This document shows positions 256 to 16,992 of a stretch of DNA of 19,669 nucleotides, piece after piece. How positions within the stretch are numbered: position 1 is the first letter of the stretch; each line of letters opens with the position of its first letter. The notes beneath the pieces were generated by a model. That model did not search any database. It worked only from the letters and a program-made list of their open reading frames with translations, and was not told the origin of the DNA. The DNA comes from Planctomycetota bacterium (GTDB taxonomy: Bacteria; Planctomycetota; SZUA-567; H5-PLA8), in NCBI GenBank assembly GCA_038227875.1, contig JBBRPR010000098.1, positions 1 through 19,669 on the forward strand, read 5' to 3'. The position numbers and the translations under genes were made by a program.

Positions 256-618
256 ATGCAAAGCGTCTCAACCCCAAAAGGCGACCGACCCAAAACAGCG
301 GCTGTGAATCGCCCGGCCCACACCGTTCGATACGGCGCGATCCGAGCCGCGATCTGGAAGAATGTGATCGACAACGGCAACACCCCGCGCGAACTGTACA
401 ACGTCACGCTCAGCCGCGGCTATCACGATGGCAAACAATGGCGGGCCAGTGGAAGCTTCGGCGTGGAGGATTTGCTCGTGGTCGCGAAGGCGGCGAACGA
501 AGCTCACACCTGGATATGCCAGCAGCGGACGGCGACCGCTCAAACCGACCCCGAAGCCGTCCACACAACAACGGGACACGGGGGCCACGACCCCGAAATG
601 CCAGCAGGACGCGCTTAG
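256..618 (+). CDS. Hypothetical protein, possibly a small nucleic-acid (ssDNA)-binding protein of mobile elements
   Basis: GAGG RBS-like sequence just upstream of the ATG. The core 'VRYGAIRAAIWKN...YNVTLSRGYHDGKQWRASGSFGVEDLLVVAKAANEAHTWI' resembles a small beta-sheet plus C-terminal helix family I recall from planctomycete-type genomes. Function is inference. Confidence 0.7.
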   Translation: MQSVSTPKGDRPKTAAVNRPAHTVRYGAIRAAIWKNVIDNGNTPRELYNVTLSRGYHDGKQWRASGSFGVEDLLVVAKAANEAHTWICQQRTATAQTDPEAVHTTTGHGGHDPEMPAGRA

Positions 619-818
619 GGGATGAGCCCAAATCGCAGCAGGCTTTCAGCGGTGGAAATCATCGCCTCCTCGTTAGAACGCGGTGCCCACTCAAGCATGC
701 GCTTGGCTTTCTCGTTCGTAAATTTTTTAACGTTGCCGAGTTCGGGGACGGCTTGAGCGAGCAACTTGTTAAATATCGAGACGAGCCGCACCATCCAGTC
801 AGGCATCATTTTGGTTGC
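615..818 (-). pseudogene. C-terminal remnant of an NAD-dependent epimerase/aldehyde reductase (extended SDR, dihydroflavonol-reductase-like)
   Basis: 'TKMMPDWMVRLVSIFNKLLAQAVPELGNVKKFTNEKAKRMLEWAPRSNEEAMISTAESLLRFGLI' matches the characteristic C-terminus of these enzymes (PxWxVR...ELG....NEKA.R.LGW.PRS.EEA...TAESL...GL). No N-terminal Rossmann domain lies upstream. Confidence 0.7.
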
Positions 819-890
819 CGAAACAAAACCGTTGGCGCTTCGGGCAGAAACTCTTTCTATCTTGGCTCATCAGCTGTAAATTATCGACCG

Positions 891-949
891 CCCGTGGGAT
901 TCCCCGGCGAAGGTTCCCCCCCCCTCCTTCGCTACCCTGCGGGTTTTTT
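891..949 (+). ncRNA. Candidate structured small RNA or terminator-like element, copy A
   Basis: Outer stem CCCGTGGG (891-898)/CCCTGCGGG (935-943), ATTCCCC internal loop, inner stem GCGAAGG (907-913)/CCTTCGC (926-932), C-rich loop TTCCCCCCCCCT, then T6. A diverged homolog lies at 15948-16002. Confidence 0.5.
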
Positions 950-991
950 CGTGCGCGACCACCGCCCATAAACCTCCTCCTCGGGAAAAAC

Positions 992-1019
992 TTGACGCGG
1001 AACTTCGAGCGTATATTCA
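992..1019 (+). promoter_or_regulatory. Possible sigma70-type promoter of the kinase operon
   Basis: TTGACG (992-997) followed by TATATT (1012-1017, 14-bp spacer) or TATTCA (1014-1019, 16-bp spacer); neither option is ideal. Confidence 0.3.
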
Positions 1020-1105
1020 GCGCGGAACCGGCCTGCAAGCCTTGGTGAAAGCGGGTTCTCCGATTATCCTTCCTACCGGCGTTGTTCATGGAAGGACGGG
1101 TCTCG

Positions 1106-2023
1106 ATGCGGTTTCCAAATTTGGCTCCGGGTGATGTACAACAAGCTGTATCGGAAGCGTCGAACATCGTGTTTCTCGACAAGGGCGGCCAAAAGGTAGT
1201 TTTCTCGTGCTCAATCAATGGCAAGCCCTATGCCTTGAAGGTACTCCAGCCACATCTTCGACCGCTGGCACTTGATCCGACCGCCAACGGCACCGATCCC
1301 ATCTCCATTGATGACGTGACTGCGCGTGCCCAACGTGAAGTCGCCACCATGAAAGAATGTGACACGCCGTATCTCGTGAAGATCGGTCCCATCGAAATGC
1401 GCTCGATTCAGATTCAAGGGGAAGACCTACTGTGCTTCAGCGAAGAGCTGATAGATGGTCTGCCGCTGAATAAAGTGCTGAAGCAAACTGGGCCGCTACC
1501 GCCGATTGAAATCATCCAGCTTGGACAGCACATTGCCACGGCAATCGGCGAACTGTGGAAGCGGAATAAGATCCATCGTGACGTGAAGCCCGGCAATATA
1601 ATGCGTCGCCGAAGTGGTGGATTTGTACTGCTTGACCTGGGCCTTGTTTTTGATTTGAACGACGAATCATTTTCTGTCGGACCAGTGGGTACGCATATCT
1701 ATTTTTCCCCTGAGCAAATGGATTTCGCAAATCGCCGACAGGTCTTGGATTTTCGATCGGATCTATTTTCATTGGGTATCACAATGTACCAGATGGGGAC
1801 TGGTGTCCATCCTTTCGGCGCGAATGCAAACAGTAGCTGGGATGTGGTGAACCACATTCGGAACATCCAGCCAATCCCTCCGAACCAAGTCAAGGCGGAA
1901 ATTCCGGAAGGATTGAGTGATATTGTAATGCGACTTCTTGGCAAACGCCCATCCTTAAGATTCCGGAGTATCGACAGACTTCAGCGAGCATTGACGGCAG
2001 CAGCAGGAAGGGGAGGGAACTGA
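1106..2023 (+). CDS. Hanks-type serine/threonine protein kinase (stand-alone kinase domain)
   Basis: Gly-loop DKGGQKVVF, YALK lysine, helix-C RE, catalytic HRDVKPGN, DLG, GTHIYFSPEQ and SDLFSLG. ATG 1106 chosen because AAGGA lies at 1092-1096 (the ORF track starts at 1082). Confidence 0.93.
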   Translation: MRFPNLAPGDVQQAVSEASNIVFLDKGGQKVVFSCSINGKPYALKVLQPHLRPLALDPTANGTDPISIDDVTARAQREVATMKECDTPYLVKIGPIEMRSIQIQGEDLLCFSEELIDGLPLNKVLKQTGPLPPIEIIQLGQHIATAIGELWKRNKIHRDVKPGNIMRRRSGGFVLLDLGLVFDLNDESFSVGPVGTHIYFSPEQMDFANRRQVLDFRSDLFSLGITMYQMGTGVHPFGANANSSWDVVNHIRNIQPIPPNQVKAEIPEGLSDIVMRLLGKRPSLRFRSIDRLQRALTAAAGRGGN

Positions 2024-2025
2024 CC

Positions 2026-3228
2026 ATGCTTCTAGCGCAAGCCGGATATGGGAGAGGCAATAAGATTCACACTGCTTTGGACGAGGCGCTCGTTGGCGGC
2101 GTCATTCTCAGTCCGAAGGACGAGCGGCGGGAACGTCTTGAAGAATGTGTCGCGGACTTAAATACGAACTATGCTGATGCATGGGTGATGGTTGATCCTC
2201 AGTTCTACGCGACCACTGTGAGTGTCCCACGCGACGGCCGTTTGCCGGAGTACGACTATTACGCAGACCACGCGCCGCTTAGCCGAACCCAGTTTAGTCC
2301 GCGACAAATTGCAGGATATGTTCGCGCGTGTCTTGATTATCAGCACGGTTTGACGGGCCTTCGTTACATCCTGTCACCGTCGGTCTTGTTTGACGATTTC
2401 CGCGACTCTTGGAGCCAGATTGCGCTCAACATGGCTGAAGCGTCGCTCGATCATCATGCGGAATTGACGGAAGCCGCACCGCTCTTGGTGACCATCGTGA
2501 CTTCTGAAATTGCGTTGCGTAACGCAACGGGCATGGGGGAATTCTTGGATGCCCTCTCTGGCCTCGACGTTGACGGGTTCTACCTGCTAGTCAATCGAAG
2601 CAGTTCGGGCTACCTGGCCGCAATGGACACGCGCGCCATGGAAAACCTCATGTACTTTGTTCATGTGCTCGCACACTTGAACGATTACGAGGTGGTGGTC
2701 GGCTATAGCGATTGGTTCGGCTTCTTACTTCACGCAGCCGGTGCAGCCGCCACGGCAACCGGATGGCATCAGTCGTTACGTCAATTCTCAATGTCAAGAT
2801 TTGAGCCAGCGGCGGGTGGTGGCCGCCGTCCGCGTAAGCGATATTCCAGCGCACCGCTGCTCTCCAATCCGCTAATTGTCCCGGAGCTGGACGACATCTA
2901 TCGGACGGGGATGCTCAACAACGTCCTGTCTGGCGGCTCCAATGACCCGATACTGGATGGCGGACCTGCTGCTGGTGAAGCACGTTGGACAGACGAAATG
3001 GGTTGTCTCGCCCATTGGGCAGCGGTGGGGAACTTGATCGCGACCATCGAGAGCGCGCCAAGACCGGCGGCGAAGCTGAATGCGGCCATACAATTGATAG
3101 ATGGCGCGACAACACTGTACGACCGGCTTTTACGCCGAGGGGTAAACTTCGAACCACAGACGGGACCCGATCACTTGGTTGCGTGGCGTGATTCACTAAA
3201 CGCATTTAGGCACACAGCAGGCGTATGA
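2026..3228 (+). CDS. Uncharacterised 400-aa protein, probable alpha/beta (TIM-barrel-like; beta-protein/sce7725-like by resemblance)
   Basis: GGAGG RBS within the kinase 3' end and start 2 bp after the kinase stop. Alternating hydrophobic strands and helices (GGVILSP, VMVDPQFY, YILSPS, LLVTIV, GFYLLV, VVVGYSD, ATGW). CDS is confident; fold and family are inference. Confidence 0.8.
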   Translation: MLLAQAGYGRGNKIHTALDEALVGGVILSPKDERRERLEECVADLNTNYADAWVMVDPQFYATTVSVPRDGRLPEYDYYADHAPLSRTQFSPRQIAGYVRACLDYQHGLTGLRYILSPSVLFDDFRDSWSQIALNMAEASLDHHAELTEAAPLLVTIVTSEIALRNATGMGEFLDALSGLDVDGFYLLVNRSSSGYLAAMDTRAMENLMYFVHVLAHLNDYEVVVGYSDWFGFLLHAAGAAATATGWHQSLRQFSMSRFEPAAGGGRRPRKRYSSAPLLSNPLIVPELDDIYRTGMLNNVLSGGSNDPILDGGPAAGEARWTDEMGCLAHWAAVGNLIATIESAPRPAAKLNAAIQLIDGATTLYDRLLRRGVNFEPQTGPDHLVAWRDSLNAFRHTAGV

Positions 3229-3932
3229 AACAGTCTAATACAAACCTGAAGACTGCGAGACGGTTTCCATTTACCGAAGAGGAAATGGCAGATGCCTTTG
3301 AGCGCCTTCTGAAAAACGGGAAAACTCTGCCAGGCGTGGGCCGACTTAGTCGAGTTTTTCGTGAAGTCGATTGCCATCGCGGGCGGCCCGATTTTATCGC
3401 CTTGGCTCGTGGAACGACACGTTTTCTGACGGGGAAAAGTATCACGCTAAAATTCGCCGGCTCACTTCTCATGTCGTTCCTGCATGAGAAATCTCCGCGA
3501 TCAGTTACATATCTGCGCGAACACAGTGGAATTTCGATTCGAACAATTAAGCTGGCAATGCTGGAACTCGTTGAGCGGAAATACGTGATCGACGCCGGCG
3601 GCAATTCGTATCTTTTGAATCCTGCTCGTCCACTTAGACAGGTTCATGTCTTGGCGTTCGAGCTTAAGCTTGATAAGCCAAAGCGAGCCGTGTTTCAGGC
3701 CCAACAGTATCGATCGTTCGCTCAGAGCGTTTTGATTGTCGCTCCGCCCAGTCAGCTTCCACTTTACAAAAAATTCGGCGTGGCAATGCGGCGTTGGGGA
3801 ATAGGCATCGCGACATTCGATCCGCGAACCGACGAATTCAAGATCCATCGGTCGCCAAGGATCGGTACGCCGCACTCGCGCCACCATCAGGCGTATGCTC
3901 TGTTTCAACTTTTGAGCGGCGCCGCCGGTTAA
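3225..3932 (+). CDS. PD-(D/E)XK nuclease-fold protein with an inserted winged-HTH (MmcB/sce7726-like)
   Basis: ATGA overlap with the previous stop. Motifs FREV...GRPDFIAL...AFELKL...QAQQYRSFA and GIGI. An HTH-like segment (SVTYLREHSGISIRTIKLAMLELVERKYV) sits between the PD and ExK motifs. Confidence 0.8.
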   Translation: MKQSNTNLKTARRFPFTEEEMADAFERLLKNGKTLPGVGRLSRVFREVDCHRGRPDFIALARGTTRFLTGKSITLKFAGSLLMSFLHEKSPRSVTYLREHSGISIRTIKLAMLELVERKYVIDAGGNSYLLNPARPLRQVHVLAFELKLDKPKRAVFQAQQYRSFAQSVLIVAPPSQLPLYKKFGVAMRRWGIGIATFDPRTDEFKIHRSPRIGTPHSRHHQAYALFQLLSGAAG

Positions 3933-3976
3933 ATCGGATATGTGTCCAGCAAGTTTGCGTACCTGTGTGGTGGATC

Positions 3977-4825
3977 TCAGTCATCGTCGCTATCGTTGTC
4001 GCCTTCCGGCAGCCCCTCGTCATTGGAAAGCACGGTCAGCGTGCGGCCGTAAGTTCCAAGACCCACAACGTCCTCTGTCATTTCGATGTTGTTGGGCGCG
4101 CCATCAAACCAGTCATCCAGCTGCGCGTATCCGCCATCATTGAGTCCGCCAGCGATGTTTGCCTCGACCTTATTGAAAGCCGCAGTGGTGGAACGCTGCG
4201 GGAGAAGTGCACCCTTCCGTAGCGGACGAAGCCCCTGAATGTCCTCTAGAGGGCTGGAGATGAAGCAGTAATCTACGGTGCCGCCTCGGCTGACAATGAC
4301 CGCGACCGGATCTTCTGCGAAACGAGCGTACCGGATAGCCGTTGCGGTAATAGACGTTCGGCAATTTGTTGCCAGTTGTTCGATAGCCGCAAACCCGGAA
4401 CCCGCGTCTCGCATCGCAGGTACAAATAGGGCCTCGGGCATTAGTAATGTCGTCGCAAAAATGTCGGCTTGGCGCTCCCGCGGATCATTTGAGAGATAAC
4501 CGCTTCGGGATTCGTGCAGGAACACGCCTTTGGAAAAAAGGTGCTCGCAATGGCCCGGGAGAAAATAATGGCCCAGCTCGTGACTGACCGTGAAGCGGAT
4601 GAATCCGTCGTTTTTGATATGCGTCGCATAGCAGATTCCGAATTGATCGCCGACGCGCATTAAAAACCCAGAGACGCCGGGGCTGTCTGATTGGCGCGGC
4701 TGCACCTCGATTCCCTTGTCTTTCGCAATTGCAAAAGGGCAGATCGGCAAGGCGGTGATTCCGCGCTCTGCTACAAGCTGCTCGGCGATGAATTCTGCTT
4801 CGCGTTCGTCCAGGTTCAGCTTCAC
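3977..4825 (-). CDS. capP: ImmA/IrrE-family Zn metallopeptidase, CapP-like
   Basis: RFTVSHELGH (HExxH), ERQADIFATTLLMP, HTH-like region and C-terminal GAF-like extension. Starts 3 bp downstream of an XRE HTH gene and is divergent from a defence operon. Confidence 0.85.
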   Translation of the reverse strand: MKLNLDEREAEFIAEQLVAERGITALPICPFAIAKDKGIEVQPRQSDSPGVSGFLMRVGDQFGICYATHIKNDGFIRFTVSHELGHYFLPGHCEHLFSKGVFLHESRSGYLSNDPRERQADIFATTLLMPEALFVPAMRDAGSGFAAIEQLATNCRTSITATAIRYARFAEDPVAVIVSRGGTVDYCFISSPLEDIQGLRPLRKGALLPQRSTTAAFNKVEANIAGGLNDGGYAQLDDWFDGAPNNIEMTEDVVGLGTYGRTLTVLSNDEGLPEGDNDSDDD

Positions 4826-4828
4826 GAT

Positions 4829-5167
4829 TCACCCCTTTTTGCCTGCCTTATTCTTTTCCGCGAGCATCGCGGCGAACTTGCTGAAACTCTCTTGGTCGGT
4901 AGAGGACATGCTACTGAAATCTCGAAACAGTTGCTCAACGACGGGTCCCGAGTTCTTTGGCTCTTCTGCGCGACCGAGCAAATAGTCGACGCTCACAGCG
5001 AGTGCATCTGCCAGTTTTTTGAGGTTCTCGAATGACGGCGACCGTTTACCGGTTTCAAAATGTGAAACCGCAGATGGCTGAAGACCTGATCGTTCAGCCA
5101 ATTCGCTTTGGCTTAACTTCTTGTTGACTCTTGTTTTGCGCAATATCTCTGGAAATTCTTCCGGCAT
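4829..5167 (-). CDS. capH: XRE-family HTH transcriptional repressor, CapH-like
   Basis: LSQSELAERSGLQPSAVSHFETGKRSPSFENLKKLADALAVSVDYLLGR is a canonical XRE HTH, followed by a short helical C-terminal domain; paired with the IrrE-type peptidase. Confidence 0.88.
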   Translation of the reverse strand: MPEEFPEILRKTRVNKKLSQSELAERSGLQPSAVSHFETGKRSPSFENLKKLADALAVSVDYLLGRAEEPKNSGPVVEQLFRDFSSMSSTDQESFSKFAAMLAEKNKAGKKG

Positions 5168-5170
5168 GGC

Positions 5171-5199
5171 TTGACCGCTTGTTGACGAAAGCGTATAGT
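5171..5199 (+). promoter_or_regulatory. Sigma70-type promoter for the bil operon, overlapped by operator TTGACG-AAAG-CGTATA (5182-5197)
   Basis: TTGACC (5171-5176), 17-bp spacer, TATAGT (5194-5199). Confidence 0.7.
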
Positions 5200-5248
5200 A
5201 TTACATGACGGGTTCGGCATGGTGCCTCGCCCGTTTCTTTACGGACGG

Positions 5249-5277
5249 ACTGTAGACGACTTCGTCAACAAAGTCAA
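5249..5277 (-). promoter_or_regulatory. Sigma70-type promoter for capH-capP, overlapped by operator TAGACG-ACTT-CGTCAA (5253-5268)
   Basis: Minus strand TTGACT (5277-5272), 17-bp spacer, TACAGT (5254-5249). Confidence 0.7.
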
Positions 5278-5311
5278 TACCACTAGCCCCAATGGGGCAG
5301 GAGATGTCGCG

Positions 5312-6040
5312 ATGAGCAACGAGAATCAGGTTTCAGAAGCCGCGAATCGGCGCGAACTGAGCATCAACGTCGACGGAAAGGACCATCGCGTCGAGCAGGC
5401 CGTTGTCAGCGGACGGCAGGTGCTTGAAGCGGCGGGCAAACTGCCGCCAGACGATTTCATCGTGTACTGGCTCGGCACGGACAACGTGCTTCAAGATTTG
5501 GGCCTCGATCAAACGGTCCACATTCACGAGCACCACGTCGAACGATTCTTGACGTTCGACAATGATCGCTCGTTCCGGTTTGAAATTGACGGAAAGCGCG
5601 AAGACTGGGGTTGCCCCTCGATCACGGAAGAGACGCTACGGAAGCTGGCCAGCGTTGGTACCGACGTTCGCGTGTGGCTGGAGCAAAAGGATGAACCTGA
5701 CCGTCTGATTTCTCCCGGCGAATCGGTTGATCTGTCGGTGTCGGGAATCGAGAAGTTCTATCTGGAGCGCGTGATCTCGGTAGAGATCGTCAATGAGAAC
5801 AATGGCGATGAGTTCCGACTCGAAGCGGTCAAGCACACTAAGCTCGAAACGGTCATCACGGAAATGTATACGAAGCTCGGCGTTCCTCGTCGGGGTGACG
5901 ACCGGCTCCGATGCGAAGAGACCGGAGAAGACGTCTTCGGATTCGCCCAGCTGACCATGGGGCAGTACATGGAGGCCGGGCATTGCCATTGTCTGGTCTG
6001 GGGCTTCGTCGGGGGAACGGGAGGTGCGTCGTGCCGGTAA
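5312..6040 (+). CDS. bilA: Multi-ubiquitin-like (three beta-grasp domain) protein BilA with a C-terminal GG motif
   Basis: AGGAG RBS before ATG 5312 (ORF track starts at 5219). Two multiubiquitin-type repeats (INVDGKDH...SGRQVL...VERF; FEIDGKRE...ITEETL...GIEKFY), then a third domain ending GGTGG-ASCR. Confidence 0.85.
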   Translation: MSNENQVSEAANRRELSINVDGKDHRVEQAVVSGRQVLEAAGKLPPDDFIVYWLGTDNVLQDLGLDQTVHIHEHHVERFLTFDNDRSFRFEIDGKREDWGCPSITEETLRKLASVGTDVRVWLEQKDEPDRLISPGESVDLSVSGIEKFYLERVISVEIVNENNGDEFRLEAVKHTKLETVITEMYTKLGVPRRGDDRLRCEETGEDVFGFAQLTMGQYMEAGHCHCLVWGFVGGTGGASCR

Positions 6041-6549
6041 GGGACCTTGCACGCACGGACCCGGAGATAGCGGCCGCGACGTTCAAGAATCATCTTGATC
6101 GACTGTGGGCCACCGGACGTCCTTCCCGGTGGGGGTGGATTCGTAACGACGTGGATACGCTTCACACCTTGGTGACCCTGCCTGCAAAACGCCAGAGCGG
6201 CGAGATCGACCCATATTACTTCCGGTTGGGAGCCGAATATTACGATGCGGCCCCTCCGACGGTGTCACTTGTTCAACCGGATGGGATTACCCATGCGGCT
6301 GAAGTCTCGAAATGGTTTCCGGTGCTGGGATCGAAGCCCGCTTGGTTTGGCTTACATGCCAAGTATCCCTGGCCAAGCGGCCCGCCCCGACAGCTTGTCT
6401 GTTTCACACTGTCGGCCGAATTCTACATGACAAACCATTCGCCCAAGGAATCGGAAGAATGGAAACAGGGGCAGCACACGGTGGCGGCAACTCTCTACCG
6501 ATTGGCTGAGATCCTGTCGCCAAAATACTATCGGAGTCCTGCCTCATGA
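6031..6549 (+). CDS. bilB: Bacterial E2 ubiquitin-conjugating-like enzyme BilB
   Basis: GTG start with GGAGGT 5 nt upstream. E2-like YYFRLGAEYYDAAPPTVSLV and a candidate catalytic Cys in QLVCFTLSAEFYMTNH...W. Lies between the Ubl and JAB genes. Confidence 0.82.
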   Translation: MPVRDLARTDPEIAAATFKNHLDRLWATGRPSRWGWIRNDVDTLHTLVTLPAKRQSGEIDPYYFRLGAEYYDAAPPTVSLVQPDGITHAAEVSKWFPVLGSKPAWFGLHAKYPWPSGPPRQLVCFTLSAEFYMTNHSPKESEEWKQGQHTVAATLYRLAEILSPKYYRSPAS

Positions 6550-7088
6550 TCACCATACCGGACACCATCTGGAGCAACATGCTGGCGGAACTCGCGAAGG
6601 AGAAACGACGGGTCGAACAGGTCTGTTACTTCGATGGCGTGGTGCTAGAGGAAGGTGGCGTTGTTACCACGATGACTATTCCGCGCGCGAAGCTCGAAGC
6701 TGGGCGGTTTCACGTTGCACCTGATGCGATGAGTGAGGCGGGAAAGCATCTGCGCGCGCTTCGGTTTCGACGGCTCGCCCAGGTCCATACGCATCCGACG
6801 GAGTGGACTGGGCATTCCCCATGGGACAACGAGTGGGCCTATTCCCAATTACCCGGTGCCATCTCGATCGTGCTGCCGCATTTTGCTCGCCGACAACCTC
6901 GGCTTGAGCAGGCGGGAGTGCATCTCCGGTTAGATGCGGGATGGCGACAGCTGTCGCCGCAGGAAGTGTCGCAGCACATCCGGCTCATACCCGGCATCCT
7001 TGATTTTAGGAGAACCAATGAATCAGCGCGTATCCAGCCGGCACGAAAGCGATCTTGGCGGTCAGTTTTTACCTTTTGGAAACACTGA
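6546..7088 (+). CDS. bilC: JAB/JAMM (Mov34/MPN) metallo-isopeptidase BilC
   Basis: E(QVCY)...QVHTHP...HSPWD JAMM motif; ATGA overlap with bilB. Confidence 0.88.
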   Translation: MITIPDTIWSNMLAELAKEKRRVEQVCYFDGVVLEEGGVVTTMTIPRAKLEAGRFHVAPDAMSEAGKHLRALRFRRLAQVHTHPTEWTGHSPWDNEWAYSQLPGAISIVLPHFARRQPRLEQAGVHLRLDAGWRQLSPQEVSQHIRLIPGILDFRRTNESARIQPARKRSWRSVFTFWKH

Positions 7089-8502
7089 GCAGGTAGGTGT
7101 GACTGTCGAGATACCGGGCGCCGTTGCAGGCATTGCGTCGGTGCAACATACCGCGTGGATGCTGGTCAACCTTCTCGCCCGCTTCCACGGCGTGGTGCAT
7201 CGGGTCGGCGTTCGCTGCCCTCCCGGAATAAAGCTCAGCGGCCGGGTCATTCCCCTCGCAGGTAGGGACTTGGATCTGGCTTCAGCGCTTGTCAGAGGGG
7301 GCATCGCGATCGGCGTTGTTCCGGTAGAAGCGAACTTGACCCTTGAGCGAATCATCGTCATAGGACCGGGCCCGGGCTACGCCGGGAGGCCAGATCTGTT
7401 TGCGATCGGCAGCGGCTGGTGTGGCGGCGTATCTGTCATTCCGCCCAGCTTCGATGCGCTGGTTGATGGATCGACACTTCCGTTTGGTCCTTACGTTGCG
7501 GCTTGCATCGCAGCCGGCGAGGTATTTAAGGCAGCAAGGATGCGGCCTGGCAGCTATGTCGCGCCAAAAGCCGCCTTCTATTCATGTTGGAATCACGTGG
7601 CCACCGGCACGCTGAATTCCGATGGGCCGCGAGATGTCGAAATCACGCTCGACGCTTCCCTTGTCGGGATTGGCGCGGTCGGTTCGGCGGTGATGCATTC
7701 TCTGTGGGCGTGCTCCGCATTGCGGGGTTCGATGGTGCTCGTCGACAACGACCCTAAAGGTTTTGATGTTTCCAATCTCAATCGTTATTCAATCTTCGGA
7801 AAAGATGCAGTTGGCCGGCAAAAGGCTACGTGTGCCGCTGATATTTTATCCGACGCCTCGATTCGATGGCTCGCCCATGATGTCGCGATCGAATCCTTCG
7901 CATTGACCACCCCCCGCGTCGTCTCCGCCGTAGATCGCAATACGGCGCGGGCGGCAATTCAAAACCAGTACTCTGCGCGGATCTTCTCCGGCTCGACGTT
8001 GGATCTCAGAGCGGAAGTGCTCCGCTGTGGGCCACCATGTGTTGGAGCTTGCCTGCGTTGCTTCAACGAACCGGAAAAGCTTCCGCCCGATGACGAACTC
8101 AGGTCGAAGCTGAAGGTTGCCGACAAAGCAGAGCTTGTCGCACTGGCGGAATCAGTGGGCCTCACGGTGACGGAAGCCAACGAATGGCTCGCAACCGGAC
8201 GGTGTGGCGCAACTGGGGAACGACTGCTTCCGCTGCTGCGACAAAACAATGGTGAAGCTGCATTCGCCGTGGCATTTGTATCGGTGATGTCCGGCGTGAT
8301 GCTCGCCGCGGAGTTGTTGAAGGACCATCTTATTCATGCCGCGCCCCTGACTGAAGATCGTCAGAGAGCCGTATTCCAGTTTTTCTCGCCCCTTGCCCGA
8401 TCGAATCGGGCCGTCGCATTTCTTCGAGATCCCCGATGTCCGATGTGCGCTCCAGCATCGGCTGCGAGCGGTATCTGGGCACTGCGGTATGGCAGCGCGT
8501 AA
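7018..8502 (+). CDS. bilD: E1/ThiF-family Ubl-activating enzyme BilD (type II architecture)
   Basis: AGGAGA RBS before ATG 7018 (ORF track starts at 6934). N-terminal inactive-adenylation-like half, then VGIGAVG, VDND, SNLNRY, AVD, Zn pairs CLRC and CPMC, and an inserted helical domain with a candidate catalytic Cys (GRCG). Confidence 0.88.
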   Translation: MNQRVSSRHESDLGGQFLPFGNTEQVGVTVEIPGAVAGIASVQHTAWMLVNLLARFHGVVHRVGVRCPPGIKLSGRVIPLAGRDLDLASALVRGGIAIGVVPVEANLTLERIIVIGPGPGYAGRPDLFAIGSGWCGGVSVIPPSFDALVDGSTLPFGPYVAACIAAGEVFKAARMRPGSYVAPKAAFYSCWNHVATGTLNSDGPRDVEITLDASLVGIGAVGSAVMHSLWACSALRGSMVLVDNDPKGFDVSNLNRYSIFGKDAVGRQKATCAADILSDASIRWLAHDVAIESFALTTPRVVSAVDRNTARAAIQNQYSARIFSGSTLDLRAEVLRCGPPCVGACLRCFNEPEKLPPDDELRSKLKVADKAELVALAESVGLTVTEANEWLATGRCGATGERLLPLLRQNNGEAAFAVAFVSVMSGVMLAAELLKDHLIHAAPLTEDRQRAVFQFFSPLARSNRAVAFLRDPRCPMCAPASAASGIWALRYGSA

Positions 8503-8588
8503 GATGCGTCGTTCGTTCTGATTGCGCCTCTGGCATCGACACCCGGTTTACTCGATAATTTGCAAGCCGCCCGAATACGGGGGCACCG

Positions 8589-11432
8589 ATGCCAACTCCC
8601 GAAGAACAAGCCCGCGAGCTGATTGATGCCCACCTAAAGGCGTCGGGGTGGATCGTCCAGACATTCAAGCACATGAATCTCGGCGCTGGCCCAGGTTTGG
8701 CGGTCACCGAGTTTCCCGGTGCGCACGGTGAGGCCGACTACCTCCTTTATGTCGATGGCAAGGCGATCGGCGTGGTCGAGGCGAAGCCCGTCGGTTACAC
8801 GCTCAAAGGTGTCGAGGGTCAATCGGCCAGCTATGCGGACGGCCTGGCGGCGAAATTGCCGGCATGGCGACGGCCACTGCCATTTCAATACGAGTCCACC
8901 GGCGAGATCAGCCAGTTCACTAACTGGATGGAACCGCACGCGCGCAGCCGCGATATTTTCGCCTTTCACCGCCCTGAATCGCTCCGCGAATTGGTTCAGG
9001 AGGAAAAGCCGCTTCGTGCTTGGCTCCGCGAAATGCCAGTTGTGCCGGGCGACGGTCTGTGGCCCAAACAGCACATTGCCATCGAGAACCTCGAAAAATC
9101 CCTTGGCCTCGCAAAGCCGAAGGCGCTGATCCAAATGGCGACCGGCTCAGGAAAAACCTTCACCGCCGCCAATATCTCTTACCGCCTGATCAAATACGGT
9201 CACGCGCGCCGCGTCTGCTTTCTGGTCGACCGGACAAACCTCGGCATTCAGACGCTCAAGGAATTTCAGCAGTTCCAGCCCCCTGGCGAACGGCATTTAT
9301 TCGATAAGCTGTACAACACCGCTTTTCCTCGCCGCAACCATTTCGATCCCGTAAACCGCGTCATCGTCACAACGGTACAACGGCTCTATTCCGTGCTGAC
9401 CGGTCAGCCCGATCTTGCCGATGAGGATGAAGAGCGATCCGCCTATGAAGGCCCCGGCGCGTTCAAGAAGCCGCCCGTTCCGATCATGTACAACGGTGCC
9501 ATCCCGCCGGAATTCTTCGACGCGATCATCGTTGATGAATGTCACCGGTCGATTTACAGCGTCTGGGGTGACGTGCTGAAATACTTCGATGCGTTCCTCA
9601 TCGGCCTCACCGCGACACCCAGCAAGCAGACCATCGGATTCTTCAACCAGAATCTGGTGATGGAATACACGCATGAGCAGGCGGTCGCCGATCGTGTGAA
9701 TGTGCCGTATGACGTTTACGAAATTAAGACCCGTATTACCGGGCAGGGATCGAAGGTCGATGCCGGGTTCTTTGTCGGTAAGCGAAGTCACAAGACGCGG
9801 GCTGAGCGACAGGAAGAGCTGGATAATGAACTCGTATATGACGCGAGAGACCTGGATCGGGCAGTCGTCGCAGAGGACCAGATTCGCACGGTCGTTCAGA
9901 CCTTCCGGGATCGGTTGTTCACTGAAATCTTCCCCGGCCGGAACGAAGTACCCAAAACGATCATCTTCGCCAAGGATGATTCCCACGCCGACGATATTGT
10001 TCGCATCGTCCGCGAGGAATTCGGTCGCGGCAATGATTTCTGCCAGAAGATCACCTATCGCACCGGCGTCATGCGGGTCACGGACAAGGTGAAAGATAAT
10101 GACGGCAAGGAAACTGAGGTTGTTCGGTACGAGAAAATCAAAGGCAAGACGGGTGAAGACGTTCTTGTTGCGTTCCGCAACTCGTTCAATCCGCGCATCG
10201 CCGTGACAGTAGACATGATCGCCACCGGCACCGATGTGAAGCCCGTCGAGATTGTCTTCTTCATGCGTTCGATCAAGAGCAGTAATTATTTCGAGCAAAT
10301 GAAGGGCCGTGGTGTTCGGGTGATTCAGCCCGACGCCCTGCGCGGCGTGACGCCTGCACAACCGGGCGAGCACGTTTCAAAAACGCGATTCGTGATCGTC
10401 GATGCCGTTGGCGTTTGCGCGCAGGCCAAGAGCGAGCGTGGCCCGCTGGACCGTGAGCCGAATAAATCCCTTAAGCAGGTTCTCGATTACGTGAAAGCTG
10501 GTGGGACCGATCCCGATGCCGTGTCAGCCCTCGCCGGGAAACTTACCCGCTTGTCATCCGAGATGTCGGCCAAGCAACACGATGATGTTAAACAGCACGC
10601 CGGCGGGAAAACCGCTGATGATCTCGTGCGTGGCCTCGTCCTGGCAGTTGATGAAACGCGTGTGGAAACGAAAGCGCGGGAGTTACATCCCGATACGGCG
10701 GAATTAACACCCAAACAACTGGAAGCTGCCGAGCAGGTTCTGATTCAGGAAGCAATCAAACCGTTCTACGATCCGCACCTCCGTGATCTGCTTCTGCAAA
10801 TCAAACAGGATAACGAGCAGACGATTGACCGTGTCAGCAAAGATGAAGTGCTTATGACAGGTTATTCGCACGCGGCAGTGGATAAAGCAAAAGCGAAGAT
10901 CGAAGATTTCAAGCGGTTCATCGCTGAGCACAAGGACGAGCTGACGGCATTACAGGTCTTTTATGGCCAAGCTACGCCGGACCGGCTCCGATTTCGTGAC
11001 CTGAAAGAATTGGCTGAACAAATCAAACGTCCGCCCGTGTCGGCAACGACCGAGGAACTTTGGCGCTGTTATGAAGCGATTGAAGCGGCGAAGGTGAATG
11101 GGAAAGGAGGCCAGATCATCACGGATCTGGTGTCTCTGATTCGTCACACCCTGCGCCCAAGCGAACCGCTCACGCCGTTCGCCCAAGTCGTCCGGCAGCG
11201 GTATGCCGCATGGCGACAGCAGCAAGGCAAAGCAGGTGTCCTGTTCAGCGACGAACAGGGCAAATGGCTGGATAAGATTGCAGAACATATTGCCACCAGC
11301 CTCGTCATTGAGATGGATGATTTCGCCGACGGATGGTTTGCCCAACGCGGAAATCTGGGCAAAGCACACGACCTCTTTGGTGAGCGGCTAGGGATCATTG
11401 TCGCCGAAATGAACCGGGCGCTAACGGCATGA
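8589..11432 (+). CDS. hsdR: Type I restriction enzyme R subunit (EcoEI-R-like C-terminus)
   Basis: Nuclease motif ADYLLY...VVEAK, Walker A MATGSGKT, DECH, LTATP, TGTDV, QMKGRG. Confidence 0.95.
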   Translation: MPTPEEQARELIDAHLKASGWIVQTFKHMNLGAGPGLAVTEFPGAHGEADYLLYVDGKAIGVVEAKPVGYTLKGVEGQSASYADGLAAKLPAWRRPLPFQYESTGEISQFTNWMEPHARSRDIFAFHRPESLRELVQEEKPLRAWLREMPVVPGDGLWPKQHIAIENLEKSLGLAKPKALIQMATGSGKTFTAANISYRLIKYGHARRVCFLVDRTNLGIQTLKEFQQFQPPGERHLFDKLYNTAFPRRNHFDPVNRVIVTTVQRLYSVLTGQPDLADEDEERSAYEGPGAFKKPPVPIMYNGAIPPEFFDAIIVDECHRSIYSVWGDVLKYFDAFLIGLTATPSKQTIGFFNQNLVMEYTHEQAVADRVNVPYDVYEIKTRITGQGSKVDAGFFVGKRSHKTRAERQEELDNELVYDARDLDRAVVAEDQIRTVVQTFRDRLFTEIFPGRNEVPKTIIFAKDDSHADDIVRIVREEFGRGNDFCQKITYRTGVMRVTDKVKDNDGKETEVVRYEKIKGKTGEDVLVAFRNSFNPRIAVTVDMIATGTDVKPVEIVFFMRSIKSSNYFEQMKGRGVRVIQPDALRGVTPAQPGEHVSKTRFVIVDAVGVCAQAKSERGPLDREPNKSLKQVLDYVKAGGTDPDAVSALAGKLTRLSSEMSAKQHDDVKQHAGGKTADDLVRGLVLAVDETRVETKARELHPDTAELTPKQLEAAEQVLIQEAIKPFYDPHLRDLLLQIKQDNEQTIDRVSKDEVLMTGYSHAAVDKAKAKIEDFKRFIAEHKDELTALQVFYGQATPDRLRFRDLKELAEQIKRPPVSATTEELWRCYEAIEAAKVNGKGGQIITDLVSLIRHTLRPSEPLTPFAQVVRQRYAAWRQQQGKAGVLFSDEQGKWLDKIAEHIATSLVIEMDDFADGWFAQRGNLGKAHDLFGERLGIIVAEMNRALTA

Positions 11433-12984
11433 GCACCGATAACAATAATCGCACCCGCGATTGCGAGGAACTGCCGCAGGGCTGGCTGTCAACAGTGCTT
11501 GGCGACGTAATTCGGCCGGAACGTCCTCGTGGAATGCCCGCTGAGCATAGGGGCCAGCCATTTGTAGGCCTTGAGCACGTCGAGGCACACACTACGCGAT
11601 TGCTTGGAACCGCGCCAGCCGAATTGATGCGAAGTTCCGGCGTTTGTTTTAATTGCGGTGACGTTCTTTATGGGAGGATGCGCCCTTACCTCAACAAAGT
11701 GTGGCTGGCGGATCGCAACGGGCTTTGTTCGGGGGAGTTCATCGTTTTCCCTGGCGGGAAAACATTCGATGGCGGTTTTTTGAAATACAGGCTCAATGCG
11801 CCTGATTTCGTTGCTTTTGCTAACCATACAACAAGCGGCGATCGTCCTCGGGCGGATTTCTCAGATTTGAGCCGCTTTCCGATACTTCTGCCGCCTTTTG
11901 CGGAACAAGGTAGAATTGCCGACCGGCTTGATGAGTTGTTCACCGATCTCTCGGCGGGCGTGGCGGCATTGGAGAGGGTCAGGAGAAAGCTCCAGCGTTA
12001 TCGTTCTGCCGTGCTGCATGCTGCCGTCACGGGCAGTCTGACCGCCGCATGGCGTAAGACATATGGCTTACCGGCCGAACCCAGCGACAAACTCAAGGCC
12101 CGCATCCTCATCGAACGGCGGAAGCAATGGGAACAACGCACTCTTGCCAAATACGGTCGCGAAAACCGAACACCGCCGAAGAATTGGAAGGATCGTTACC
12201 CGGAGCCAATCTCTGTCGGAACTTTGGCCCATGGTAGCGCGCTTCCTGAACTGCCAGAAAGTTGGTGTTGGGCTACCCACGACCAAGTAGGAAATGTACA
12301 GCTTGGGCGTCAGAGATCACCTGAACATCACAGCGGCATGCACATGCGTCCTTACCTGCGCGTCGCCAATGTTCATGAGGATCGAATTGACACGAGCGAC
12401 GTGCTGGAAATGAACTTCACGCCCGAAGAGTTCACTGTCTACTCGCTGAAACGCGGAGACATTCTGTTGAATGAAGGGCAGAGCATGGACTTGATCGGTA
12501 GACCCGCCATGTATCGCGATGAACTCCCGGGAGGATGCTTTCAGAACACCTTAGTTCGACAGCGAATGTTGATGGCGTGCTCGCTGATTATGGCCTGATT
12601 GTTTGCCTCGCGCAGTTTCGGGTAGGTCGTTTTCGGAAAATTGCATCGATCACGACCAGCATCGCGCATCTCGGTGCTCAGAGATTTGCCGCATTGGAAT
12701 TTCCGCTTCCACCGATTGAAGAGCAGGCGGTAATCGTTGAATCCGCAAACGAAAAACTCTCGCAAATTGACGCAATGGAGGCGGAGGTGGTTCGCGATTT
12801 TGCACGGGTAGCCCGATTGCGGCAGGCGATCTTAAAAGCCGCGTTTGCTGGCAAGCTGGTGCCGCAAGACCCCGTAGATGAACGCGCACCAGTGCTTATG
12901 GAGCGAGTTAGGGCCGGCCATGATGCGCAATCGTCCGCCAAGCCTGCGCGAATGAAACGTTCACCGAAAGTAGCAAGCAAATGA
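11429..12984 (+). pseudogene. hsdS: Type I RM specificity subunit, frameshifted near 12560 within TRD2
   Basis: ELPQGW TRD1, LPPFAEQGRI conserved region and ELPESWCW TRD2 lie in 11429..12598. The rest of TRD2 and PLPPIEEQ...LRQAILKAAFAGKLVPQDP lie in another frame (to 12984). ATGA overlaps at both ends. Confidence 0.88.
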
Positions 12985-14528
12985 CTCAGAACGGAAATGG
13001 ACAGGCCAGTCCGACCGCCAGCCAGATCGGCACGCGGGTCTGGTCATACGCTGGCGTCTTAAAAGACGATGGGCTTTCGTACATGGCCTATGTCGAGCAG
13101 CTCACGTTCTTGCTGTTTCTCAAGATGGCGGACGAGCTGACGAAATCGCCGTACAACGAGGCCAGCCGTATTCCAAAAGGTAAGGATCGCAAAGGCAACG
13201 ATGTAGCGTACGACTGGCAAAGCCTTGTGAGCAAAGACGGGGCGGATTTGTATCAGCACTACCGCGATGTGCTGGATTTCCTGAGCACGCAACCGGGATT
13301 GCTGGGCACCATTTTCAAAGAGGCCGAGTGCAAGATCAAAGACCCGGCCAAACTTCGGCGATTGATCGTGGATCTGATAGACCGCGAAAGGTGGCTGAGC
13401 CTCGACCTGGATGTGAAGGGTGTGATTTATGAAGAGCTGCTTTCGCGGAGCGCCGCCGAAAGCACCGGTGGTGCAGGCCAGTATTTCACGCCCCGCCCAA
13501 TTATTCAGGCGATTGTGGATGTGATGCAGCCTTCGCCGGAAGAGACGATTATCGACCCGGCTGCCGGGACCGGCGGATTTCTCACGGTCGCATACCAGTA
13601 TGTATTGGATGCTCACGGCTCCAAGATGGATAAGGGCGAGAAGCGCCGGGCACGCGAGCAATTGGTGACTGGACAGGAACTGGTGCCGGAAACGGCGCGA
13701 TTGTGCGCCATGAATCTTTTCCTGCACGGCATTGGCGGACTGGATTGCAGCCCGATTATTAGCGGCAAGAGCAGTCTGGACACTTCACCGACGCAACAAT
13801 ATTCGATGGTGCTCACGAATCCGCCATTCGGAAAAAAACAGTCGCTCAAGACGGTCAATGAAGAAGGCGATCTCGACAGCGAAGATGAAGTGGTCGTGCG
13901 TCAGGATTTCTGGGTATCGACGGCGAACAAGCAACTGAATTTCGTCCAGCACATTTTCAACCTGCTCAAAGTTCGGGGGCGTGCTGCGGTGGTTGTGCCA
14001 GATAACGTGCTGTTCGAGGGTGGGCCTGGGCAGAAGATCCGCCAGCAGCTATTGCAGCAATGTGATGTTCACACGCTCCTGCGGTTGCCGACCGGCATCT
14101 TTTACAAACCGGGTGTCAAAGCGAACGTGATCTTTTTCGACCGCAAGCCGCCCCAAGAAAAGGCGTGGACCAGCAAACTGTGGGTATACGATTTCCGAAC
14201 GAACAAGCATTTCACGCCGAAGCAAAATACGTTGCGGAGGGCGGAGCTTGAAGAATTCATTGCGCTCTTTAAGCCTGGAGCCATCCATAAGCGAAAGCCT
14301 ACATGGTCGGAAGAAAAGCCTGACGGCCGGTGGCGCTGCTTCAATTACGAAGAACTGCTCAAACGAGACAAACTGAGTTTCGACCTGTTTTGGATTAAAG
14401 ATGATAGTGTTGAGGACAGTAGCACCCTCCCCGACCCTGATGTGCTGGCACAGGAAATTGTCGAGGACCTGGAAGATGCCCTCGACCAATTCCGCTCCAT
14501 TGCAGCGACGCTAACTGCCAAAGGGTAG
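12981..14528 (+). CDS. hsdM: Type I RM N6-adenine methyltransferase M subunit
   Basis: YVEQLTFLLFLKM N-terminal domain, GQYFTPR, motif I DPAAGTGGF, motif IV NPPF. Confidence 0.95.
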   Translation: MTQNGNGQASPTASQIGTRVWSYAGVLKDDGLSYMAYVEQLTFLLFLKMADELTKSPYNEASRIPKGKDRKGNDVAYDWQSLVSKDGADLYQHYRDVLDFLSTQPGLLGTIFKEAECKIKDPAKLRRLIVDLIDRERWLSLDLDVKGVIYEELLSRSAAESTGGAGQYFTPRPIIQAIVDVMQPSPEETIIDPAAGTGGFLTVAYQYVLDAHGSKMDKGEKRRAREQLVTGQELVPETARLCAMNLFLHGIGGLDCSPIISGKSSLDTSPTQQYSMVLTNPPFGKKQSLKTVNEEGDLDSEDEVVVRQDFWVSTANKQLNFVQHIFNLLKVRGRAAVVVPDNVLFEGGPGQKIRQQLLQQCDVHTLLRLPTGIFYKPGVKANVIFFDRKPPQEKAWTSKLWVYDFRTNKHFTPKQNTLRRAELEEFIALFKPGAIHKRKPTWSEEKPDGRWRCFNYEELLKRDKLSFDLFWIKDDSVEDSSTLPDPDVLAQEIVEDLEDALDQFRSIAATLTAKG

Positions 14529-14736
14529 GATGTGAGGATAGGCGAACATGAATACCTTCGATGTCACGGCGGCTGCCGCTTCGCCTCGTCCGCCCTTGCC
14601 GTCTCGGACTAATTCCGAATGACTTCATACCGTAAACTCCTGATAGAAATGAGAGACTAGGCGCGACGTGACCGCCTTGTCGCGAGTGAAACGTCTCCTT
14701 GGGACCGCCGAATCCCTCGTTACAATCACAATGTCA

Positions 14737-15944
14737 TACGCCTTCCGCCTGATTCCCGCGCGCCCGTTCGTTCGGCGCTTGTACGGTAGCGCCCGAGCGG
14801 CCGATCTGGCATGATGCCTCCGGTTCATCAAGAACGGAGGCATCGCCATGACAGTTGATCTTCACGACGCGGAGGACATCGAGCGGTTGCGTCAGCAGGT
14901 TCGCGACGAACGCAAGGCTTTGCAGCGCGACCGTTACCGCGTCGTGCTGCTCGCCGCGGAAGGACGGATGGACGCCGGGGACGGCGTCGGCGGGGAGATG
15001 ACGCGCGAGCAAATCGCCGCGGCGGTGGGACGCAGCCGGCAATTCGTCGACGAATGGGTCGGCCGCTACCGGCGTGGCGGGGTCGAGCACCTGCGTGCCC
15101 GCAAGCAGCCGGGCAACCGGCCCTCGCTCACGCCGGAGCAGCAGTCGGCGTTCAAGGCGCGTCTGCTGGCCGGTCCCACCGCGGACGCCGACGGCGGCGT
15201 ATGCACGCTCCGCGGCCGCGACGCGCAACGTATTCTCGACGCCGAGTTCGGTGTGCCGCTCAAGCTCAGCGCGGTGTACGAGTGGATGCATCGCATCGGG
15301 CTCTCCTGCCTCAAGCCACGTCCGCGGCATCGCAAAAACGACCCCGCCGCGATGACCGACTGGCTCGAACGCGCCCCCTTTTTGTCCAGCAGGTGACGGA
15401 CGAACACCCTGATAAGCGGGTCGAAGTCTGGTTCCAGGACGAAGCGCGGATCGGCCAGCAGGGCACGCTCACGAACGTGTGGGCCGAAACCGGCTCGCGT
15501 CCGACGGCGGTCAAGCAGACCGAGTACGAGTGGTGCTACCTGTTCGCCGCCGTCAACCCGCTCACGGGCGCCAGCTCGGCGATGATCACGCCGACAGTAA
15601 ACACGGCGCTCATGAATCAGCATCTGCAGTTCATCAGCCGCCAAGCCGGTCCCGACGTGCATGTCGTGCTCGTGCTGGACCAGGCGGGCTGGCACGTGGC
15701 CAAGGCCCTGGAGGTGCCCGACAACATCACGCTGCTGCACCTTACGCCATACTCGCCGGAGCTGAACCCGGTCGAACGGGTGTGGGGTTACTTGAGAAGC
15801 CACCACCTGAGCAACCGCGTCTAGCGCGATTACGACGACCTGTTCGATGAGACGACGATCGCGTGGAACCTGCTGCCCGAGTCCCGGCTGCAATCCCTCA
15901 CCGCCGTCGACTGGGTGCGGCACGCGATTTAGGCGGAAAGCGTA
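14737..15944 (+). mobile_element. IS630-family insertion sequence (about 1.2 kb)
   Basis: Imperfect terminal inverted repeats: TACGCCTTCCGCCTGATTCCCGCG (from 14737) and the reverse complement of the right end, TACGCTTTCCGCCTAAATCGCGTG (to 15944). Flanked by TCA direct repeats at 14734-14736 and 15945-15947; encloses a two-frame DDE transposase. Confidence 0.9.
14848..15932 (+). pseudogene. IS630 transposase (HTH orfA, -1 frameshift, DDE orfB) with an in-frame nonsense codon
   Basis: orfA 14848..15396 carries HTH domains. Slippery CCCCCTTTTT at 15374-15383. orfB has WFQDEAR, VLDQAGWH and PYSPELNPVE. TAG at 15822-15824 interrupts LSNRV*RDYDDL...AWN; the natural stop is at 15930-15932. Confidence 0.85.
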
Positions 15945-15947
15945 TCA

Positions 15948-16002
15948 GCGGTATCCCCGGAGAAGGTTCTCCCCCTCCTTTCCAACCGCCGGCATTTTTT
16001 TT
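15948..16002 (+). ncRNA. Candidate structured small RNA or terminator-like element, copy B (5' arm separated by the IS630)
   Basis: GCGGT/ACCGC outer stem, ATCCCC internal loop, GGAGAAGG/CCTTTCC inner stem, loop TTCTCCCCCT, then T8; homologous to 891-949. Confidence 0.5.
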
Positions 16003-16015
16003 GCGCACTGTCGGG

Positions 16016-16990
16016 TCATGGATTCGCTGAAATCACATCGGCCAAAACATACTCGCCTCCGGCCAAACCGGTGACCTCGGCGATGGTCGAGACCCGGCGC
16101 CCTGGCGCGGTGGACGTCCTGGCGATAAACATGACGACATTGACCGCGCTGGCGATCGACCGCCGGGGAATAACCTGAGTGGCTTCACCCACCAAATCCT
16201 CAATGCGCCGAAGCGCATCCGCCGCCGAATTGGCGTGAACGGTGGCGACGCCGCCGGGATGTCCGGTGTTCCACGCTTTGATCATCGCCAGCGCCTCCGG
16301 CCCGCGCACTTCGCCGACGACGATTCGGTCTGGGCGCAGGCGCAGCGTCATCCGCAGCAAATCGGTCATGCTCACCCTGGGTTCCGTTCCCTTGGTCAAA
16401 AGTTCCACCTTATCTGTGGCCGGACATTGGAGTTCGCGCGTATCCTCCAGAATCACCACCCGGTCGGTACGGAAGGCCGGCTCGGCAAGGATCGCGTTGA
16501 CCAATGTCGTCTTCCCCGTCCCGGTGCCGCCGGCCACCAGAATGTTCTTGCGATCGGCGACCGCGCGGTGGATGAACGATGCGCCCTCGCTGGCGAGGAT
16601 GCCGGCCTTTATATAGTCGTCCAGCGTGTACACGACTGAAGCGCGTTTGCGGATCGTGAACACCGGTCGCTCGGCAAGTGGCGGCAGCACGCCTTGAAAC
16701 CTTTCTCCGGTGCGGGGGAGCACGCCGGCAACGGCCGGACGGTCGGGTGTGACCGTTTCCCCCATGTGGCTGGCCAGGAGGCGGATCGTTGTTTCGGCCG
16801 CCGCTGGCTCGATCCGGCCGATCTTCTCACGGCCCACGCCAACCCGGTCAACCCACAAGTGGCCATCAGGATTGGCCATGATTTCCACCACGTCGGCACG
16901 CGACAGCGCTTCGGCGATCACGGGTCCCAGGGCGTGGTAAAGGCTTTCGTGGTGACGATCCCGAACGACGTGATTGTTTCCCGCCATCAT
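16016..16990 (-). CDS. trbB: P-type conjugative transfer ATPase TrbB (VirB11 family)
   Basis: VVEIMANPDGHLW, Walker A GGTGTGKT, ILEDTRELQC, LRLRPDRIVVGEVRG, WNTGHPGG. Confidence 0.95.
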   Translation of the reverse strand: MMAGNNHVVRDRHHESLYHALGPVIAEALSRADVVEIMANPDGHLWVDRVGVGREKIGRIEPAAAETTIRLLASHMGETVTPDRPAVAGVLPRTGERFQGVLPPLAERPVFTIRKRASVVYTLDDYIKAGILASEGASFIHRAVADRKNILVAGGTGTGKTTLVNAILAEPAFRTDRVVILEDTRELQCPATDKVELLTKGTEPRVSMTDLLRMTLRLRPDRIVVGEVRGPEALAMIKAWNTGHPGGVATVHANSAADALRRIEDLVGEATQVIPRRSIASAVNVVMFIARTSTAPGRRVSTIAEVTGLAGGEYVLADVISANP

Positions 16991-16992
16991 GT

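Follow-up and report, generated by a model that had tools for sequence, protein, structure and literature searches.

Two C-rich hairpin elements at the edges of a defence cargo

Contig JBBRPR010000098.1 of a Planctomycetota bacterium (assembly GCA_038227875.1) carries, within an integrative and conjugative element (ICE), a cargo of defence genes bounded on each side by a C-rich hairpin element, copy A on the left and copy B on the right. The window analysed here is this whole contig of 19,669 nucleotides (nt). The locus raises the question of what the two elements are: terminators, DNA sites involved in cargo capture or genes of a small RNA (sRNA), and, if the last, how such an RNA would act. 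We found that A and B belong to a genuine family of sRNAs, apparently not described before, whose members are short hairpin RNA genes of Tepidisphaerales-type planctomycetes. Two related C-rich elements had been proposed in a preliminary description of the window, and both are present where it placed them, with the following parts:

854..882, plus strand: predicted promoter of copy A (weak -35 at 854-859, 17-nt spacer, -10 at 877-882)
890..949, plus strand: copy A, an intact short-form sRNA gene (predicted fold; 60.3 bits with model R2, whose training set includes A)
890-898/936-944, plus strand: outer stem of copy A
899-905, plus strand: UCCCC bulge of copy A
906-913/926-933, plus strand: inner stem of copy A
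914-925, plus strand: poly-C loop of copy A
944-949, plus strand: U-run of copy A
14699..14726, plus strand: predicted promoter of copy B (TTGGGA-16-TACAAT), split off from the RNA body by an insertion sequence (IS)
14730..14736, plus strand: start of the 5' arm of the outer stem of copy B, to the left of the IS; the final three of these bases recur at 15945-15947
14737..15944, plus strand: IS630-family element with terminal inverted repeats, 1208 bp, inside the 5' arm of copy B
15945..16002, plus strand: body of copy B, decayed (fold, R2 score, alignment)
15953-15958, plus strand: bulge of copy B
15959-15966/15977-15983, plus strand: inner stem of copy B
15967-15976, plus strand: loop of copy B
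15985-15996, plus strand: 3' arm of the outer stem of copy B
15995-16002, plus strand: U-run of copy B

The preliminary description assigned one architecture to both copies. Copy A folds in this manner: its 7-nt bulge, with CCCC at the end, and its 12-nt pyrimidine loop are separated by an inner stem of 8 bp, both are open in the predicted fold, and six T follow. Its promoter, TTTCTA-17-TAAATT, scores 12.5, just below our cut of 13, and lies 23 nt from the hairpin, which is the family distance (21-25 nt in most short copies). The nearest relative of copy A (L117) is identical at 53 of 56 positions. Copy A is likely still able to work, provided the weak -35 suffices.

The architecture does not hold for copy B. 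It is plainly a relative, scoring 58.5 bits (E 5e-13) with R2, a model from an alignment with A and without B, and matching its nearest relatives, L007 and L131, at 49 of 54 positions; nevertheless the 3' arm of its inner stem lacks one base, a loop C has become T, the outer stem holds an A-C mismatch, and another fold is preferred, with the family fold 4.2 kcal/mol above the minimum free energy (MFE). The IS630 element, present in a single copy in the assembly, puts the promoter 1.2 kb from the RNA body. Since the IS parts copy B from its promoter and the family fold is lost, copy B is likely dead; it is probably a pseudogene, with IS630 the likely cause of its inactivation, and the idea of two working copies is not supported. 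When the IS was removed in silico, a model with a 3-bp duplication folded at -21.6 kcal/mol and one with a TA duplication at -17.0 kcal/mol. What favours the 3-bp duplication is fold energy and likeness to homologues (L120, L007), not other insertions: a search for the IS end gave counts as in the reversed control and no paired ends.

The -10-like hexamers of the preliminary description stood for A, by its position at the family distance, while the B site alone is one of 6 hits in the window against 6.9 expected, a scan in which the A site was not called. The weight of both promoters therefore comes from their position within the family.

The two copies belong to an apparently undescribed family

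Our searches yielded 133 different homologous copies, most of them in Tepidisphaerales/Phycisphaerae records, at 1-8 per genome. A pattern scan of GTDB returned 102 stretches, 99 of them distinct after removal of 3 duplicates and 87 with an outer stem once 12 with a weak or cut one were dropped. Among 80 GTDB rows with titles, 66 named Phycisphaerae, Phycisphaerales, Tepidisphaerales or their genera, 6 had no stem and 8 bore other labels, these labels being the depositors' titles. Records titled Methylococcaceae, Bacillota or Hyphomicrobiales (L024 (G443), L048, L049, L061 and L075) have several copies or the long form described below, which suggests mislabelled or mixed bins. A window-like pattern found 26 further stretches in metagenomes.

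Model searches scored part of the candidates and may have missed copies. Model R1 matched 16 of 151 Phycisphaerae genomes with 1-8 copies each, and 2-5 copies in each of five chosen genomes; Fontivita pretiosa, a cultured strain with a complete genome, has 3-4. In a phylum-wide sample around Fontivita, R2 matched 2 of 151 genomes, the second weakly. Within 62 genomes of the host's own class the pattern occurred in one, and by R2 only the window scored well; two further weak matches there both lacked the UCCCC bulge. Copies A and B are the sole R1 matches in the 9.3-Mb assembly. A 26-base pattern common to A and B matched only these two sites and was met in 0 of 200 shuffles, a partly circular control as the pattern derives from A and B themselves.

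No known family covers the element. Rfam 15 gave nothing at gathering threshold for the window (one unrelated match, E 0.82), and for 14 homologue loci it gave a tRNA region elsewhere and, over the element, two sub-threshold matches (E 0.1 and 0.52), so the novelty proposed in the preliminary description stands against Rfam. Viral contigs held neither a pattern match nor a relative of the backbone gene, and plasmids gave DNA matches at chance level only.

Covarying stems and almost invariant C tracts predicted to be unpaired

Both helices of the family covary. In alignment A1 (77 rows, four inner-helix pairs of which were preset by the search pattern) the inner helix is 100% paired and has two-sided changes in 143 cells compared with 47.6 after shuffling, with none of 500 shuffles as high. 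In alignment A2 (46 rows, including copies found by model) two-sided changes occur at 13 of 17 pairs, with a covariation score of 0.465 versus 0.171 for shuffled and at most 0.144 for slid alignments. RNAalifold, a check that had been proposed for the two copies, recovered the same fold from the family alignment. G-U cells exceed A-C cells in both helices (16 versus 3 in the inner, 18 versus 10 in the outer), an excess that favours the plus strand.

In contrast to the stems, whose sequence turns over while helix length and loop asymmetry stay constant, the unpaired tracts hardly change. Of 133 copies, 132 retain the CCCC bulge, 131 have a loop run of at least five C and 129 have UCCC before the inner stem; loop and CCCC bulge are unpaired in 109 of 110 MFE folds. 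This bears out the proposal of conserved C-rich unpaired tracts between covarying stems. Among 23 model-found copies, 22 keep the bulge and 21 a run of at least five C, while CCUCC is kept in 10 and the GAAGG/CCUU inner stem, seen in copy A and once thought shared, in 5; that stem is not invariant. The exposed tracts are pyrimidine-only in the alignments and contain no GGA, the motif of Csr/Rsm sponges. The anti-Shine-Dalgarno sequence UCCCC/CCUCCUU of the preliminary description is thus exposed as a UCCCC bulge and poly-C, with CCUCCUU only partly so; in the predicted folds the conserved feature is exposed poly-C rather than a perfect anti-Shine-Dalgarno (anti-SD) sequence.

Short copies have a predicted promoter and a U-run; long copies have a leader

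The copies were split into short and long forms by a regular expression, after which 20 loci were reassigned by eye. Using our own sigma70-like weighting, a promoter scoring at least 13 stood at the fixed distance in 56 of 89 copies, a set that still held some long copies, compared with 1-6 of 79-88 at six control offsets; it stood there in none of 44 long copies. Four or more U end 46 of 52 short copies. The earlier proposal of a self-terminating RNA of about 60 nt is supported by this promoter and U-run, the predicted length being about 55-60 nt. The neighbours of the 69 short copies vary and have no preferred orientation (upstream gene on the same strand in 25 and on the opposite strand in 22; downstream 23 and 21), which argues against a plain terminator or leader. 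At one locus (L032) short copies at 4934 and 5658, each with a promoter, surround a single 173-aa gene. At four others (L043, L084, L037 and L106) short copies adjoin a gene that we take to be imuA-like, with DnaE-type polymerase domains further on; in L043 and L084 the copy lies 124-134 nt upstream of it.

Long copies have their best promoter-like site mostly 85-135 nt upstream (200-nt search, no control), and a leader with a hairpin and U-run directly before the core. In 34 of 56, 1-2 further C-rich hairpin loops are present, versus the single hairpin of the short form, and a homologue of nuoC, so named from its sequence, lies in 36 of 64 long-copy loci versus 0 of 68 short-copy loci. Leaders of L013, L014, L017, L050 and others have, about 15-60 nt upstream of the core, a hairpin and 5-7 U overlapping an alternative GAGCC/GGCUC hairpin, and GAUGA recurs in leader loops. 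From its predicted folds the leader looks like a transcription attenuator gating the C-rich core.

A search with two words found the core sequence in 13 RNA runs, which is no evidence of habitat, and all four runs examined gave contigs of 83-166 nt holding the core with sRNA-type flanks. These metatranscriptome contigs are a weak hint that the family is transcribed.

A proposed trans-acting sRNA and its alternatives

We think it somewhat probable that A, B and their relatives are trans-acting sRNAs whose C tracts pair with G-rich ribosome-binding sites and damp translation without Hfq. A discrete transcript of about 55-60 nt would terminate on its own outer stem, the poly-C loop of 9-12 nt would make the first contact with the UCCCC bulge as second seed, and the paired C tracts would repress translation initiation at G-rich sites. 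We infer base pairing to such sites because there are precedents among UCCC sRNAs, because the native clade uses Shine-Dalgarno (SD) sequences, with an enrichment of G-rich words upstream of its start codons (e.g. GGGGA, 0.026 versus 0.003, n=617), and because Hfq was found in none of five genomes. Translational regulation, suggested in the preliminary description, accordingly remains the best mechanism on offer, though one for which predictions gave no significant or conserved target.

The lack of a target speaks against pairing. In the proposed scan of ribosome-binding sites of the element, 3 of 24 window sites paired with the A loop versus 52 of 1038 in the host (p=0.12) and 9 of 194 in ICEs that lack this RNA (p=0.13), no significant enrichment in either case. 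Three homologues of the best candidate target, the gene at 2026 in the kinase operon, show unremarkable ribosome-binding sites, and their retrieved loci contain no copy of the RNA (of these loci, L263 lacks upstream DNA). Poly-C also pairs poorly with canonical GGAGG, opening the stem top costs 6.7-11 kcal/mol, and the fixed helix length between the C tracts would equally suit a protein. In addition, the pattern used to collect the members presets part of the conserved core; kinship among the sequences inflates the shuffle tests, so that the weight of the covariation rests on the slid control and the many pair types; and the transcripts seen are long-form contigs from organisms other than the host, obtained without a DNA control and derived from neither A nor B.

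The candidate itself, second in its operon, pairs with the A loop at -17.6 kcal/mol, within the top 0.3% of the 1038 host sites. Among ICE backbone genes, no site that was both strong and conserved turned up (traG -6.5 to -16.4 kcal/mol; the copG-like gene was not tested). A first scan of 18 starts chosen by hand placed 4 in the top 5% and so looked enriched, an effect that was lost once one rule called all starts.

The constant spacing of the C tracts leads to a different reading, which we regard as unlikely but deserving of attention: that the RNA is a protein decoy whose C tracts, 7-8 bp apart, titrate a poly-C-binding regulator as CsrB does CsrA, with the ICE copies shifting host regulation. 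Helix length and loop asymmetry kept despite turnover of stem sequence would fit this, as would the further C-rich loops of long copies, the several copies per genome and the empty target scans; repeated C-rich loops, however, equally mark base-pairing sRNAs, and no partner protein was identified. CsrA binds GGA, and although CsrA is present in all five genomes, the exposed tracts lack this motif. Far less probable is an antitoxin or safety catch for the adjacent defence cargo, for instance one covering the ribosome-binding site of the second kinase-operon gene. The position of copy A just upstream of that operon and the strong pairing at 2026 speak for it, but they are set against the ordinary sites of the homologues, the varying neighbours and the rarity of a small hydrophobic open reading frame within 300 nt (1 of 69 short copies); the antitoxin role considered in the preliminary description is not borne out.

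If the element were simply an intrinsic terminator, or attenuated the following gene from its 5' side, with loop conservation as a side effect, this would account for the stem and U-run of short copies and for copy B facing the trbB 3' end. It would not account for a promoter at fixed distance, for called upstream genes on the opposite strand in 22 of 47 short copies with downstream genes split 23/21, or for almost invariant unpaired tracts on changing stems, and we judge it very improbable. The least probable reading, largely refuted, takes the copies as DNA sites, acting by recombination homology or as single-stranded hairpins, that bracket and capture cargo, as the preliminary description had considered. 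It draws on the direct orientation of A and B at the edges of the variable slot, on the two copies around one gene in L032, and on ICE markers near 10 of 68 short versus 0 of 64 long loci (loci selected by the RNA). Yet R2 found no copy in 186 kb around six orthologous ICEs with differing cargo in the same slot, and no full match occurred in 29 loci around the backbone gene. Moreover, A and B share 41 of 57 positions, whereas each is 91-95% identical to distant copies, so that they were likely acquired separately; the same core stands at a non-mobile locus beside nuoC; and promoter, U-run and G-U bias point to RNA.

Extending either the sRNA or the decoy reading, one may speculate, with low confidence, that this is the first sRNA system of Phycisphaerae. 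It would combine a long chromosomal RNA, its C-rich core freed by an attenuator-like leader, with constitutive minimal forms of 55 nt that ICEs would repeatedly take up to rewire host translation or to titrate a poly-C-binding global regulator, a C-rich counterpart of Csr/Rsm.

Relation to known regulatory RNAs

Protein-sponge RNAs such as CsrB, RsmY and RsmZ carry repeated single-stranded motifs on hairpins. The present family resembles them in its repeated unpaired motifs on hairpins and several copies per genome, in genomes that encode CsrA; its exposed motifs, unlike theirs, are poly-C rather than GGA, so that CsrA is not the expected partner.

There is also a likeness to base-pairing sRNAs. 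The cuckoo RNAs of Alphaproteobacteria, including CcsR (RSs0680, SmelA075, SmelA099), occur in several copies as modular hairpins in which the stems vary and the C-rich, anti-SD-like loops are conserved, with one main conserved chromosomal locus and scattered copies (PMC4615179, PMC8034643); CcsR bears anti-SD loops and acts on flhR mRNA (PMC8034643). Our family shares the multi-copy state, variable stems and C-rich loops, the long form having up to three C-rich hairpin loops. Membership fails by the definition in those papers, since CCUCCUCCC, present in each cuckoo loop, occurs in 0 of 133 copies, either in the core or within -120/+170 nt. The core here is one interrupted hairpin with a C-rich bulge instead of 2-4 like hairpins, and promoter-like sites lie directly upstream of both forms instead of co-transcription from the 3' untranslated region of an upstream gene or with DUF1127 (DUF1127 itself was not searched). 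The phylum, the lack of an Rfam match and the failure to find Hfq in the five genomes differ as well.

Unpaired UCCC motifs of RsaE and LhrC are described as binding SD sequences independently of Hfq (PMC2790875, PMC4132741). Firmicutes UCCC sRNAs (RsaE, RNAIII, LhrC1-5) likewise have redundant sites and sibling copies, and our family shows the mark of this class, a conserved unpaired UCCC in an RNA with predicted structure, promoter and terminator, the class being a mechanism and not a homologous family. It differs in that it has no sequence or structure match in Rfam, is roughly half as long as B. subtilis RsaE (114 nt), resides in high-GC planctomycete hosts and is only proposed to bind SD sequences. 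The best reading of these comparisons is that the family would act as UCCC and cuckoo sRNAs do while belonging to neither group. The literature searched, with few subscription papers, held no description of this RNA or of any Phycisphaerae sRNA family; nor did passages of three discovery screens (PMC11109978, PMC8632094, PMC10690425), whose candidate tables could hold the motif.

As the family is small, multi-copy and present in cultured Fontivita pretiosa, Hfq-free planctomycete riboregulation becomes directly testable, and the alignment is suitable for building a family model. If the proposed pairing is true, C-rich seed sRNAs had another, apparently independent, origin. We also see here a family of mobile elements on which additional copies of a host regulatory RNA travel.

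The mobile element, its cargo and its host

A and B are passengers, and optional ones, of a TraG/TrbB ICE family, at its cargo slot; we take the backbone of this family to be Tn4371-like. The edges of the slot in the window are:

256..618, plus strand: ICE backbone gene, 120 aa, left edge (no Pfam or NCBIfam match; presumably SSB-like)
616-850, minus strand: 3' portion of a gene, located between copy A and the backbone gene (no Pfam hit; presumably epimerase-like)
16016..19493, minus strand: ICE backbone traG, a 213-aa gene (presumably copG-like, by position) and trbB, right edge

Like that family, the window has traG and trbB with one small gene between them, and a relative carries DUF2840, TraF and S24 repressor genes. 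Six Phycisphaerae genomes hold the same backbone (traG 60-72%, trbB 72-79%) with different cargo and unrelated DNA at both cargo edges. The RNA, unlike the backbone parts, is absent from these six orthologues; five of five of their hosts checked have 1-3 copies elsewhere in the genome. Other members of the ICE family (DUF2840, TraF, S24 repressors; linked via L221) bear a short copy, near TraF. The protein encoded at 256-618 occurs in 64 of 401 Phycisphaerae genomes, a tally that includes the unpublished genome G864, and five of the six related ICE regions have it two times over; in one orthologous ICE (L217, G954:C5) a CRISPR-like repeat array follows this gene directly, from about 4440. The fragment at 616-850 is likely a scar of cargo capture.

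In the host assembly (88% complete) no 16S motif stood among the matches listed. The assembly gave no FtsZ and 8 matches to DUF1559, which suggests that the host is a planctomycete of another class than Fontivita's; 62 genomes represent its class and more than 400 Fontivita's. As the classes differ, the element has crossed classes or the contig is mis-binned; the tetranucleotide distance of the window (rank 15 of 99) does not separate transfer from mis-binning.

The cargo consists of the kinase operon, a CapP-like peptidase with a helix-turn-helix (HTH) gene, Bil-like ubiquitin genes and a type I restriction-modification system. The operon at 1082-3932 comprises genes for a kinase, for a 400-aa product that matches no known family and for a weakly sce7726-like protein, and it has its own promoter-like site at 991-1019; homologues of the middle gene occur in 3 of 301 Phycisphaerae genomes and on one haloarchaeal plasmid. 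At 3977-8502 the CapP-like peptidase and HTH gene diverge from an operon of multi-ubiquitin, unknown, BilC-like and BilD-like genes, by its sequence a putative Bil-like defence system regulated in the CapH/CapP manner. At 11429-12984 the type I specificity subunit is apparently split across two overlapping frames.

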